DNA of 64,000 nt from Patescibacteria group bacterium UBA1406 (GTDB taxonomy: Bacteria; Patescibacteriota; Microgenomatia; UBA1406). Location of the stretch: positions 189 to 64,188 of the forward strand of contig DBQA01000001.1 in assembly GCA_002305675.1 (NCBI GenBank), in the 5' to 3' direction. A program made the translations under genes and the position numbers. Shown here piece after piece: positions 15,118-17,212 of the stretch; position 1 is the first letter of the stretch; each line of letters starts with the position of its first letter. The notes beneath the pieces were generated by a model. That model saw only the letters and a program-made list of their open reading frames with translations, ran no database searches and was not told the DNA's origin.

Positions 15118-15171
15118 ATGAAATTTAGGGTTTTGTCCGTCATCATTTTGGTCCTCCTTATTACCGCCTAG
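15118..15171 (+). CDS. Leader peptide 1, MKFRVLSVIILVLLITA (Ile/Leu/Val-rich)
   Basis: 17 codons, 10 of them I/L/V including 8 in a row (VIILVLLI). The TAG stop lies in the loop of hairpin CCGCC/GGCGG. It sits between a consensus promoter and an intrinsic terminator. Confidence 0.6.
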   Translation: MKFRVLSVIILVLLITA

Positions 15172-15234
15172 GGCGGGGGAGGTTGACTGACGAAACTATT
15201 AAAAACCTAACCCGCCAAAAGGGCGGGTTTTTTT
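15163..15234 (+). promoter_or_regulatory. Transcription attenuator 1 (anti-antiterminator / antiterminator / terminator)
   Basis: Helix 1:2 is CCGCC 15164-68 with GGCGG 15172-76. Helix 2:3 is GGCGGG..AGGTT 15172-84 with AACCT..CCCGCC 15204-16. Helix 3:4 is the terminator at 15210-34. The helices are mutually exclusive; pairings were hand-counted. Confidence 0.65.
15210..15234 (+). terminator. Intrinsic terminator ACCCGCC-aaaag-GGCGGGT followed by T7
   Basis: 7-bp GC stem, 5-nt loop, then seven T. It ends 11 nt before the ATG at 15246. Confidence 0.8.
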
Positions 15235-15255
15235 GATGGGAAAAAATGACCGCGA
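15210..15255 (+). repeat. Copy 1 of the ~46-nt terminator-to-start-codon module
   Basis: acccgccaaaagggcgggtttttttgatgggaaaaaatgaccgcga, compared with the copy at 17166. About 40 of 47 positions are identical by hand alignment. Confidence 0.7.
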
Positions 15256-17042
15256 CCAAGGAAATTAAATACAGCTTTGAGGCAGGTGGCAGGCCGCTTG
15301 ACGAACAAACCCTCATGCGGGCCATCAGGGAGGAGACCCACAAGTTCCCCCATGTGTCCGAAGGCGAATGGCCGGGTGTGAAGGGGCGGATGGGGGAGAC
15401 CGGGGTGGTTGCCTACGGGAACGGGACCGGATTGATATTTGGGGCGGTCCGCCACCCCTCATTTATCCCCAGGGAAATCAACGGTCACGGGGTTGAATAT
15501 CAGGGTCCCCAGACTTTGAAGCATCTGGAAAGGTCGTTCCTGGTCGAACATACCGACGAGTACGTGGCCCGGCACGCGAGCGGGATGCTGCAGGTCCTCG
15601 GCCTGCCCGGAGCCAGGTTATCCGACCTCGCCGAGTTCTACGAGGGAGCGGGGGCCGGCGGCAGCGAACCCGAGGCCTGGCTGGTATCTAAGGACGGCAC
15701 GCCCTACCACATCGATGACGGCGGAGAGTTGCAGGACAATCTTCTTGAAGAGACTTTGGATGCGGTCTCCGACCCGTCCGTTTTCCTGCGGACACGCGCC
15801 CGACAGATAAAAGCCAGGAAGGAAAAATACCCCGAGGCCACCGTCGTGGATACGTCGTCCATGCCGACCGGGAGCCCGGCCGAGATGCGCGTTCTGGAAA
15901 GCGGGGAAATAGGCCCGTACGTCAAGGCCATCCAGAACATTCTCTACAGTCGCTTCATGCATGCCTACCACCCCCTGGCGAGGGGCCTGATGGATAAGAT
16001 CGCCGACGCATACCATTACCGGGACTGGCAGGATATGCATGGTTCACTCGGGAACATGGCCTACCTGGTATTCTCCGCCTCCCACCTGAGCATCGGCCTG
16101 CCGCACCTGAGAAAAGGGAACGAGGCCATGTCCATCCCGGAACAGGAGGCTATCGCCGTGGCCGACATCTTCAACAGCAACCTGGCCACGCTGGCCGAGC
16201 TATTGATGTTCTCGACCCCCATGGTCTACGGCATCACCCCGACCGTCAACGTGGACGGACAGGAGCTTTGGCCGCGGGATATGCGCTCCATCATGCGTTA
16301 CGCCCTGGATACCACCTATCCCGCTCCCTTCATCATGACCCCGGCAAACTACCGCCGCCGCGTCTCTGACCAGATAGTGAACGGCCTGTCGCATACCATA
16401 GACAGGGCCGCCTATATGACCGAGATCCCAGACCTCCAAAATGGGGGTTATACGAAAAGGGCCGTCATGCACGGCCGAGTGAGGATACGCGCCGCCTCCA
16501 ACGAACCCAGAAATCTGACCGGTCGGGTGGAGTTCACCGGCTGTTCCGCCTCTCCCTCCATCTGGGACGAGGCCGCCCGAAACTCCCTGCTGCAACTTCT
16601 GATGGTCGGCGCCTACGAGGCGCTGGCGAACGGTCAGCATCCCGCCGATTATTTCGGGGGCGAGTTTCCGAATCTGGCCGAATGGAAGGATCAGCAGGCC
16701 CTGGCCATCGAAGCCTCCCTGTACGGTTTCCGGACGCCCCGGATCACGTCCCTGATAGGGGAGGGGATCCGCTTCGTCGACCGCATGCAGGACAAGTATT
16801 TGACCCGCGAGAACGGGCACGGTCCCGTTTCTGCCCTGGGCACCCAGGCCCGCCTGGCCAGGGAAAGGCTTCTAAACCTCCAGGCCCCGCCTGCCCAGAG
16901 CCTGGGCGATTATGTGGACTCACCCCGGGGACCGTTCTCCGAGGTGGTCCGGAACGAGCTCATGGGCGGCAAGACCCCCCTGGAGGTGACCAGGGAAATA
17001 GAGTCATACCAGCTTGCCATGGCGGATAAACTCCTCCGTTGA
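15246..17042 (+). CDS. GCS2/YbdK-superfamily carboxylate-amine ligase-like protein, divergent paralog A
   Basis: 598 aa. HGRVRIR...GRVEFTGCSASP resembles the YbdK H-W-D-I-R...GTVEVRVMD region, and LMFSTPMVYG resembles SAASPYMQG. The usual HVHVG is HLSIG and the ExE motif is GVEYQ. Paralogous to 17202..18902. Confidence 0.8.
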   Translation: MTATKEIKYSFEAGGRPLDEQTLMRAIREETHKFPHVSEGEWPGVKGRMGETGVVAYGNGTGLIFGAVRHPSFIPREINGHGVEYQGPQTLKHLERSFLVEHTDEYVARHASGMLQVLGLPGARLSDLAEFYEGAGAGGSEPEAWLVSKDGTPYHIDDGGELQDNLLEETLDAVSDPSVFLRTRARQIKARKEKYPEATVVDTSSMPTGSPAEMRVLESGEIGPYVKAIQNILYSRFMHAYHPLARGLMDKIADAYHYRDWQDMHGSLGNMAYLVFSASHLSIGLPHLRKGNEAMSIPEQEAIAVADIFNSNLATLAELLMFSTPMVYGITPTVNVDGQELWPRDMRSIMRYALDTTYPAPFIMTPANYRRRVSDQIVNGLSHTIDRAAYMTEIPDLQNGGYTKRAVMHGRVRIRAASNEPRNLTGRVEFTGCSASPSIWDEAARNSLLQLLMVGAYEALANGQHPADYFGGEFPNLAEWKDQQALAIEASLYGFRTPRITSLIGEGIRFVDRMQDKYLTRENGHGPVSALGTQARLARERLLNLQAPPAQSLGDYVDSPRGPFSEVVRNELMGGKTPLEVTREIESYQLAMADKLLR

Positions 17043-17067
17043 CACCATCCGGGAATGATGCTAGAAT
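17039..17067 (+). promoter_or_regulatory. Sigma70-type promoter TTGACA-N17-TAGAAT for leader ORF 2
   Basis: TTGACA 17039-17044 overlaps the stop of paralog A. TAGAAT 17062-17067. The leader ATG lies 8 nt after the -10 box. Confidence 0.7.
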
Positions 17068-17075
17068 GGAAAACC

Positions 17076-17138
17076 ATGATCACAGCATCTACAAGTTTCG
17101 GTTTCTTTTTCTTTTTTACCCCGCAGATGGCGGGCTGA
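17076..17138 (+). CDS. Leader peptide 2, MITASTSFGFFFFFTPQMAG (Phe run)
   Basis: 20 codons, 6 of them Phe (TTC GGT TTC TTT TTC TTT TTT). The TGA stop lies inside the antiterminator arm. It resembles the enterobacterial pheL leader (..FFFAFFFTFP). Confidence 0.6.
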   Translation: MITASTSFGFFFFFTPQMAG

Positions 17139-17190
17139 TGCTGTAATAAAAAAATAAATAATCAGACCCGCCAAAAAGGCGGGTTTTTTT
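17119..17190 (+). promoter_or_regulatory. Transcription attenuator 2 (same three-helix design as attenuator 1)
   Basis: Helix 1:2 is CCCGC 17120-24 with GCGGG 17130-34. Helix 2:3 is GGCGGG+CTGAT 17129-39 with ATCAG(a)CCCGCC 17161-72. Helix 3:4 is the terminator at 17166-90. Pairings were hand-counted. Confidence 0.65.
17166..17190 (+). terminator. Intrinsic terminator ACCCGCC-aaaaa-GGCGGGT followed by T7
   Basis: 7-bp GC stem, 5-nt loop, then seven T. It ends 11 nt before the ATG at 17202. It could also terminate paralog A transcripts. Confidence 0.8.
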
Positions 17191-17212
17191 GTGTCCAAAA
17201 AATGAACCGCGA
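17166..17212 (+). repeat. Copy 2 of the ~46-nt terminator-to-start-codon module
   Basis: acccgccaaaaaggcgggtttttttgtgtccaaaaaatgaaccgcga. See copy 1 at 15210. Confidence 0.7.

Follow-up and report, generated by a model that had tools for sequence, protein, structure and literature searches.

In the E. coli pheA and pheST (pheM) attenuators, a leader open reading frame (ORF) with a run of Phe codons precedes RNA regions that can pair as 1:2, 2:3, or 3:4, a terminator lies just before the gene, and scarcity of charged Phe-tRNA leads to read-through. The enterobacterial ilvGMEDA, ilvBN, and leu attenuators have multivalent leaders combining Ile, Leu, and Val codons. T-box leaders share both the signal (the tRNA charging ratio) and the output (terminator versus antiterminator) with such attenuators, but differ in their sensor, a 200-300-nt RNA that binds tRNA directly. 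Leader-peptide attenuators have been described in Actinobacteria (PMC1262725), and a 2010 survey knew them only from Proteobacteria and Actinobacteria, with Firmicutes (hisS/hisZ) newly added (PMC2965389). Here, we report on a 64,000-nt stretch of DNA (hereafter, the window) from Patescibacteria group bacterium UBA1406 (GenBank assembly GCA_002305675.1, contig DBQA01000001.1, positions 189 to 64,188 of the forward strand), which very probably contains a pair of independent transcription attenuators of the trp/phe/ilv type, ribosome-mediated and based on leader peptides, with one standing before each gene of an ancient paralog pair, g1 and g2. These would belong to the same element class as those of Actinobacteria and Firmicutes, which were likewise found by comparative genomics. 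A full-text search found no literature linking leader peptides or attenuators to Patescibacteria or the candidate phyla radiation (CPR), which is absence of evidence only.

Unit 2, located before g2, resembles the E. coli pheA and pheST systems in its leader ORF with a Phe-codon run, its three alternative pairings, and the position of its terminator, and it would follow the same logic. It differs in that it has no sequence homology to them beyond generic features, its host belongs to the Patescibacteria rather than the Enterobacteria, its gene encodes an uncharacterized protein with a predicted glutamate-cysteine ligase (GCL) fold rather than pheA or phenylalanyl-tRNA synthetase (PheRS), its leader mRNA is probably leaderless, and its stop codon is embedded in region 2. 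Unit 1, located before g1, mixes Ile, Leu, and Val codons within the same four-region architecture as the enterobacterial ilv and leu attenuators, but differs from them in phylum and regulated gene, and its score with the Rfam family Leu_leader (RF00512) is 21.8 bits against a gathering threshold of 50. The assignment of both units rests on their anatomy (Table 1), their alternative folds and energies, conservation and covariation over about 40 units, and the match between leader flavor and gene family; from these we infer ribosome footprints, leaderless initiation, and the response in vivo.

Table 1. Positions of the two attenuator units, their genes, and the downstream M20 peptidase gene in the window
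Feature	Position	Strand	Details
Unit 1 promoter	15076..15105	+	TTGACA-18 nt-TATAAT; consensus match 12/12
Unit 1 leader ORF	15118..15171	+	MKFRVLSVIILVLLITA; Ile/Leu/Val codons 10/17; stop TAG 15169-71
Unit 1 region 1	15129..15168	+	Includes CCTCC 15153-57 and CCGCC 15164-68; predicted partner of region 2 without a ribosome (minimum free energy folds)
Unit 1 region 2 (antiterminator 5' arm)	15172..15184	+	GGCGGG core 15172-77, GG internal loop, AGGTT 15180-84
Unit 1 region 3 (also terminator 5' arm)	15204..15216	+	AACCT 15204-08, AA, CCCGCC 15211-16
Unit 1 intrinsic terminator	15209..15234	+	AACCCGCC-AAAAG-GGCGGGTT; GGCGGG 15222-27; T7 15228-34
g1	15246..17042	+	598 aa, ATG 15246; uncharacterized, predicted glutamate-cysteine-ligase/YbdK-like fold
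Unit 2 promoter	17039..17067	+	TTGACA-17 nt-TG-n-TAGAAT; consensus 11/12; overlaps g1 stop codon
Unit 2 leader ORF	17076..17138	+	MITASTSFGFFFFFTPQMAG; 6 Phe of 20, five consecutive; stop TGA 17136-38 within region 2
Unit 2 region 1	17120..17124	+	CCCGC, partner GCGGG 17130-34; ACAGCATC 17082-89 also pairs with GATGCTGT 17137-44 (minimum free energy folds)
Unit 2 region 2	17129..17139	+	GGCGGG core 17129-34, CTGAT 17135-39 containing the leader stop
Unit 2 region 3	17161..17172	+	ATCAG 17161-65, bulged A17166, CCCGCC 17167-72
Unit 2 intrinsic terminator	17164..17190	+	CCCGCC-AAAAA-GGCGGG stem; GGCGGG 17178-83; T7 17184-90
g2	17202..18902	+	566 aa, ATG 17202; ancient paralog of g1, same predicted GCL/YbdK-like fold
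M20 peptidase gene	20338..21411	+	Pfam Peptidase_M20 + M20_dimer; 1.4 kb from g2

Each element is about 115 nt long, and both end in the same way, with a GC-rich terminator stem of 8-9 bp, a T7 run, and the segment AAAAAATGA, which occupies the 11 nt between the T7 run and the ATG of the gene in either unit. These are the only strong terminators of the CCCGCC/GGCGGG type in the 64 kb, where CCCGCC-N3-7-GGCGGG occurs twice against an expectation of 0.10. At their 5' ends, the leader ATG lies 13 nt past the -10 box in unit 1, which would imply a very short 5' untranslated region, and only 9 nt past it in unit 2, so that the unit 2 leader mRNA is probably leaderless. The stop codon of the unit 1 leader abuts region 2, which begins with the next nucleotide. 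No third unit was found in the 64 kb with covariance model R1, which detected units 1 and 2 and gave its next match at an E value of 0.53. A third copy had been considered before the other 598-aa ORF of the window (29619-31415), but this ORF encodes an ABC transporter and no attenuator precedes it. Just upstream of the unit 1 promoter, at 15022-15050, there is also a 10-bp GC-rich hairpin (GGGCTGCCGG-CCAAAAA-CCGGCAGCCC) without a T-run, situated inside the 5' end of a minus-strand ORF (14439-15059) that has no Pfam match.

The preliminary description of this DNA had pointed out that the distal arms of the antiterminator differ between the two copies yet remain complementary within each, and this is confirmed: AGGTT pairs with AACCT beyond a 2x2 internal loop (GG/AA) in unit 1, and CTGAT pairs with ATCAG beyond the 1-nt bulge in unit 2. 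For both full leaders, the minimum free energy (MFE) fold consists of a 1:2 hairpin and the 3:4 terminator, with z-scores relative to dinucleotide shuffles of -3.8 (unit 1) and -3.4 (unit 2). When region 1 was deleted before refolding, as a mimic of a ribosome stalled on the codon run, the MFE fold became the 2:3 antiterminator in both window units. The antiterminator, the terminator, and the 6-bp core of the 2:3 helix alone have predicted energies of -21.0, -14.5, and -12.1 kcal/mol in unit 1 and of -18.9, -15.7, and -10.7 kcal/mol in unit 2. Since the core alone is weaker than the terminator, it is the 5-bp distal extension that tips the balance to the antiterminator in these units. With the interior shuffled between fixed cores, the observed hairpin energy was reached in 141 of 5000 trials for unit 1 and in 69 of 5000 for unit 2.

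In the mechanism that we propose, transcription would start at the consensus sigma-70 promoter, and the short leader ORF would be translated almost from the 5' end of the transcript. With the cognate charged tRNA in plentiful supply, the ribosome would reach the stop codon. As this codon directly adjoins region 2 in unit 1 and is part of it in unit 2, the terminating ribosome would mask region 2, the 3:4 hairpin with its T7 run would form, and transcription would end 11 nt before the gene; such a placement of the stop codon is usual in trp/phe/ilv-type attenuation. If no ribosome were present, regions 1 and 2 would pair and the terminator would form as well. Under scarcity of Ile-, Leu-, or Val-tRNA (unit 1) or of Phe-tRNA (unit 2), the ribosome would instead stall on the codon run and cover region 1, leaving region 2 free to pair with region 3, so that the terminator would be blocked and g1 or g2 transcribed. 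The distal extension would thus serve as the part of the 2:3 helix that makes the antiterminator stabler than the terminator.

Scans of genome and metagenome collections together with contig look-ups yielded 35 loci. Attenuators of the same layout stand before g1, g2, or g3 homologs (g3 being a third family, described below) in at least 25 loci from Roizmanbacteria, Microgenomates, Dojkabacteria, and other Patescibacteria, and the series of elements before nearly every such homolog runs from a promoter and a short ORF, through a G-rich region 2 located at the stop codon and a region 3 complementary to it, to a T-run terminator. The leader stop codon lies 20-55 nt before the 5' arm of the terminator in all tabulated units. 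The 2:3 pairing is retained with differing sequences in about 40 related CPR units: terminator stems vary (CCCGCC, CCCCGC, CCTCTC, CCCTCCG, CCGCCC, CCCCGA), region 2 varies in step with them, and regions 2, 3, and 4 co-vary as a triple (GGCGGG/CCCGCC, GCGGGG/CCCCGC, GGGAGG/CCTCCC, GGGCGG/CCGCCC).

To quantify this pairing we used a register-free swap test and a covariance-model alignment in place of fixed-column pair counting on a plain MAFFT alignment, which was abandoned because both the bulges and the core register differ between units. An automatic search for the region 2 core without gaps made wrong assignments in L001_6009 and L019_569 and was dropped; region 2 was instead located by folding duplexes with the terminator arm of the respective unit as the anchor. 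In the swap test, each unit's region 2 and terminator arm were held fixed and the 10 nt upstream of the arm were exchanged between units. Among 38 non-identical units, the native segment had a mean rank of 6.0, compared to an expected 19.5, and was on average 3.5 kcal/mol more stable (Wilcoxon p 1e-9), and the observed total was reached in 0 of 20000 permutations. A covariance model built from the two copies and a search with it had been put forward in the preliminary description; here, a covariance-model alignment of 41 matches had 67.6% of cells paired, compared to 61.1+/-1.4 for shuffled controls (0/500) and 42-52% for slid controls, and a covariation score of 0.220, compared to 0.136 (0/500), with both sides changed in 10 of 13 pairs. 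The corresponding swap test on the 1:2 pairing across units was likewise positive (0/20000 permutations), strongly for g1 and g3 units and weakly for g2 units. These results, obtained from comparison of sequences, support the distal 2:3 pairing as a conserved and functional RNA helix, as had been proposed from the window alone, where the same helix supplies the predicted energy that beats the terminator.

Several loci deviate from the single-unit arrangement. Tandem attenuators precede one gene at L009 3683-3975, L027 3684-3989, L001 5807-6031, and L019 368-591, sometimes separated by a small hydrophobic ORF (e.g., MGEFLLFALVMAVVYKML), and at L010 ~900-1086, a deletion seems to have fused the antiterminator of a first unit to the leader of a second. 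On the minus strand of L012 (3711-3773), a 39.8-bit covariance-model match has an aromatic-rich leader, MVNKWYFGYWFTRQDGGEL, and no obvious ORF downstream on that strand.

The flavor of the leader follows the family of the gene. All 16 tabulated g2 leaders contain 4-7 Phe codons, mostly in runs, and so does the leader of a remote g2 relative in L035, while the leaders of g1 and g3 contain 6-11 Ile, Leu, or Val codons (e.g., MKLAVLSIFVLLITA and MKNQVLSIIFVLFILITA for g1 orthologs). Across Microgenomates-group genomes, each g2 ortholog comes with a Phe leader, and the g1 orthologs come with Ile/Leu/Val leaders. A further check raised in the preliminary description, whether other leader flavors occur before additional paralogs, has a positive answer, as leaders for Leu, Ile, Val, and Thr were all found. 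In Dojkabacteria (L011 1626-7807, WJKM01000006.1), where the mixed ilv-type leader is split up, three tandem g1 paralogs that are mutually 52-56% identical each have their own attenuator, with the leaders MNKKLMQQNLLNLLLVLTGFSG (Leu), MRKNFLLDSVIIIP (Ile), and MNQIFLNNNVVVVVEPRLSGG (Val), and the junction from stop codon to region 2, GG(G/C)TAG(A/T)T, is common to all three. In L033 (GCA_964512695.1), the leader MSKSVFGTTTTTTLS at 5787-5882, with six consecutive Thr codons, precedes a remote g1 paralog (6001-7785, 37% identity) that lies directly upstream of thrS-infC-rpmI-rplT-pheST. Duplication of a gene together with its attenuator, followed by retargeting of the leader, would be better seen in the Dojkabacteria triplet than in the window.

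The third family, g3, comprises proteins of ~600 aa that replace g1 upstream of g2 in some genomes (L014 1045-2841, L015 128-1921, L022 1047-2837, L024 1095-2843, and L035 1782-3443); its units have Ile/Leu/Val leaders and stems of the CCTCTC/GAGAGG type, and the family is distantly related to g2 (hhalign probability 77%). Attenuator-like units were also observed before other genes (L033 ~3070-3169 and ~1881-1973, L034 ~3627-3745, and L030 2725-2842). Among the candidate leaders of these ATP-grasp-type and methyltransferase genes, which are Asn-rich, aromatic-rich, or mixed, MNIMNNNGAVKKNLS precedes an operon of an ATP-grasp and an M20 gene, MKSTFLVCCVTTLL and MQHRTARYFDHFCFWPRKWRGA precede two homologous proteins of 330-341 aa (28% identity) with ATP-grasp-like motifs, and MKSILGNLIFVLFINRRNVAGG precedes an S-adenosylmethionine (SAM) methyltransferase. 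The regulon may be wider than g1 and g2. In L035 (7900-8140), a promoter is followed by ~150 nt of RNA that appears to be structured and that closes with a hairpin and T-run ahead of thrS; this region was considered as a T-box and rejected, as it has no Rfam match at E values up to 0.1.

Taken together, the units possess an amino-acid-rich short ORF near a promoter, a terminator between this ORF and the gene, an antiterminator that is mutually exclusive with the terminator and covaries, a region 1 that can sequester region 2 (positive family-wide, weak in g2-type units), and a stop codon placed to mask region 2. By every criterion that sequence can test, the elements are ribosome-mediated leader-peptide attenuators. 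There are, however, observations that weigh against this assignment. No Shine-Dalgarno sequence precedes either leader ORF in the window, so that translation of the leaders is an assumption. The pair counts of the covariance model come from a structure-fitted alignment, in which variation of the bulges from unit to unit leaves the distal columns 40-60% unpaired, and the distal extension is only 0-2 bp in about a quarter of units. With region 1 masked, the thermodynamic MFE fold is still the terminator in 13 of 41 units, where kinetics must therefore matter. The 1:2 pairing of unit 2, and of g2 units generally, amounts to 4-5 bp with weak covariation. Finally, searches of the window and of 20 related loci against Rfam gave no leader-family match at the gathering threshold, and extension of the search to E values up to 10 added just sub-threshold matches to leader families. 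The highest score with Phe_leader (RF01859) was that of unit 2, at 40.2 bits (E 1e-4, full-length), followed by unit 1 at 27.9, against a gathering threshold of 55, and scores with Trp_leader (RF00513, 30.9 against 41) and Thr_leader (RF00506, 22.1 against 55) were also below threshold.

With regard to translation initiation, most genes of the window lack a Shine-Dalgarno sequence, and many have a TAnAAT-like -10 box that ends ~7 nt before the ATG, for example those beginning at 20338, 32636, 37987, and 46715 and, on the minus strand, those at 45034-46689, 56750-57817, and 62165-63787. This suggests that leaderless mRNAs are widespread in this genome, a pattern that both leader ORFs match.

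The strong resemblance of the two units within the window could alternatively reflect a recent event in this genome, either a duplication or a gene conversion, in which the module was copied with or between the adjacent genes, leaving 85-88% identity as a residue while the distal arms diverged by compensatory substitutions. The preliminary description had favored such a history, with the regulator duplicated along with the gene and then diverging in a compensatory manner, but we consider it improbable. The similarity itself is real: identity from terminator to start codon, first estimated at ~40 of 47 positions, comes to 42 of 48 columns in an optimal alignment of 15210-15255 with 17166-17212, the T7-to-ATG spacing is equal, a distance of 1.95 kb separates the units, which share a strand, no part of the 64 kb apart from copy 2 resembles copy 1, and the two terminators of other genomes with both units (L003 and L006) are less alike than those of the window. 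However, beyond the stem, T-run, and A-rich start region, aligned identity between the units falls to ~50-60%. Taken from region 2 through the T-run, it amounts to 63%, which is no higher than the identity of either copy with units of other genomes. Equally similar terminators occur in L011_5926 (Dojkabacteria) and L017_940, and the genes g1 and g2 are just 19-20% identical. The distal arms and leader flavors are likewise shared with orthologs rather than between the window copies, as the closest g1 ortholog, L031, has GGCGGGGAGGTTTTT/AAAAACCTAACCCCGC as well (AGGTT/AACCT, including the AA bulge), and L019 has GCGGGCTGATTTTT/AAAAATCACCCCGC (CTGAT/ATCA, with the same embedded TGA). The motif CCGCGA shortly after the ATG, which had been noted as a further shared feature, is indeed present in both genes, but it falls in different frames (ACC GCG ACC, encoding TAT, in g1; AAC CGC GAA, encoding NRE, in g2) and is coincidental; MTATKE is the ancestral N-terminus of g1, seen in low-GC orthologs. 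In these units, as in this genome, start regions are as a rule A/U-rich and devoid of a Shine-Dalgarno sequence.

These comparisons of sequence do not support recent duplication, and the g1 and g2 modules would not be recent copies of each other, their near-identity being limited to elements that are under constraint and reappear in distant genomes. The two copies would look alike because both follow a design conserved in the CPR, GGCGGG...CCCGCC-A-rich loop-GGCGGG-Tn followed by an A-rich start region. A common ancient origin of both modules is possible, for which the elements are too short to provide a demonstration, and a short conversion tract limited to the ~25-nt terminator is also possible.

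Much less probable still is that the window holds ordinary gene-end terminators and gene-start promoters without any switching, the terminator at 17167-90 ending g1 transcripts, the leader ORFs arising by chance, and the 2:3 pairing being incidental. These genomes contain many intrinsic terminators of the same sequence type, but both terminators here come after a consensus promoter and are followed by a start codon 11 nt later, an order that does not fit a terminator at the end of a gene, and the family-specific leader codon runs, the stop codon at region 2, and the covariation of the 2:3 pairing in about 40 units are at odds with chance. Sensing without a ribosome, by T-box-like tRNA binding, a small-molecule riboswitch, or a TRAP- or PyrR-like protein acting on the same terminator/antiterminator pair, is hardly credible: although its output domain would look identical and the U-rich tract of Phe codons might conceivably serve as a site for protein binding or pausing, no T-box or riboswitch match was obtained at E values up to 10 (for the T-box model over 14900-17400, with none at the gathering threshold in the window or the related loci), the elements are only ~115 nt long, in-frame ORFs from ATG to stop are kept in nearly all units, the position of the stop codon relative to region 2 is conserved, and no single binding motif can explain the flavors Leu, Ile, Val, Thr, and Phe.

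The proteins placed under these candidate ribosome-mediated attenuators are uncharacterized, and neither g1 nor g2 has a Pfam, NCBIfam, or PDB sequence-profile match. The two align with 20% identity over 110 aa, and comparison of the g1 and g2 families by hhalign (probability 99.5%, E 2e-22, 486 columns, 19% identity) indicates that they are ancient paralogs. Their homologs carry Patescibacteria names (Roizmanbacteria, Microgenomates group, Dojkabacteria, or "Patescibacteria group") or are unlabeled, with the exception of two metagenome-assembled genomes labeled Gammaproteobacteria, and the family is rare, with 117 cluster representatives at E<=1e-3 among 1.84 billion. AlphaFold models, with confidence (pLDDT) values of 92.3 for g1 and 93.8 for g2, were compared to known structures with Foldseek. 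The best matches were YbdK and gamma-glutamylcysteine synthetase (gamma-GCS), then PafA/Dop, for g1, and YbdK, plant GCL, and gamma-GCS for g2, and solved-structure matches also included glutamine synthetases and E. coli glutamate-cysteine ligase. The top matches of both models had E values of 1e-7 to 1e-6, a probability of 1.0, and target TM scores of 0.63-0.68, at a sequence identity of 10-14%. Thus, the best structural relatives are YbdK/GCS2 carboxylate-amine ligases, gamma-glutamylcysteine ligases, and PafA/Dop, and the models predict that g1 and g2 carry the glutamine synthetase/GCL catalytic fold, although both are ~200 residues longer than YbdK. ExE, HxH/H, and RxR motifs and further Glu residues are invariant in the g1 and g2 family alignments. 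A weak precomputed Pfam match to GCS2 was present only in the g3-type relative of L035.

In about 20 loci, an ortholog of the M20 peptidase gene lies downstream of g1 or g2 in the same orientation, and in most of these it is the very next gene. In the window, the 1.4 kb between g2 and the M20 gene are filled by two overlapping minus-strand ORFs (18899-20274; 212 and 247 aa) that have neither a Pfam match nor a tblastn match in the related loci, and a separate -10-like box directly precedes the ATG of the M20 gene. In L034 (5001-9341), a g1-like gene, a gene for a 204-aa protein, a prephenate dehydratase gene (PDT+ACT), and an M20 peptidase gene form an operon behind an Ile/Leu/Val leader, and a homolog of the 204-aa gene also follows the g2-like gene in L035; the prephenate dehydratase operon may be a clue to the pathway. 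A remote member of the superfamily, a 27%-identical g2 relative, stands at L026 1687-4422 after a GT4 glycosyltransferase and an AMP-binding enzyme, in a cell-envelope-like context and with no attenuator. Elsewhere in the window, positions 61913-62146 hold a tRNA gene with a 5S rRNA gene right behind it; a protein-coding ORF rather than 23S rRNA lies upstream, and the 5S rRNA gene appears to be unlinked from the large rRNA genes.

With low confidence, we infer for each paralog a role, alongside the M20 hydrolase, in supplying or handling the amino acid that its leader specifies. Tentatively, and with somewhat less than even confidence, the attenuators may mark an unrecognized, CPR-restricted, amino-acid-specific system, in which a small family of ATP-dependent ligase-fold enzymes, comprising the GCL/YbdK-like g1, g2, and g3 and possibly ATP-grasp-like proteins, would typically be co-transcribed with an M20 amidohydrolase, with one amino acid per paralog (Phe, Leu, Ile, Val, Thr, and perhaps aromatic residues, Asn, and Cys) and induction when the corresponding aminoacyl-tRNA is low. 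Biosynthesis of amino acids is generally regarded as absent from CPR bacteria and Patescibacteria; should this hold, the system would offer a new way to acquire, salvage, or quality-control single amino acids, with Dop-like cleavage or exchange of amide-linked conjugates as one possibility, and the leader peptides would constitute a built-in annotation of each enzyme's substrate.

For leader-peptide attenuators in the CPR, the mechanism is known, and the phylum and the regulon appear to be undescribed. Gene regulation in the CPR is almost unstudied, and these attenuators lie outside every Rfam family. The ~40 units provide a natural series of terminator/antiterminator variants for the retargeting of attenuators after gene duplication. 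Moreover, the leader peptides may act as labels that assign amino acids to rare, CPR-restricted, unannotated enzymes with an M20 partner, which would turn "hypothetical proteins" into a testable hypothesis on how reduced bacteria respond to the shortage of specific amino acids.

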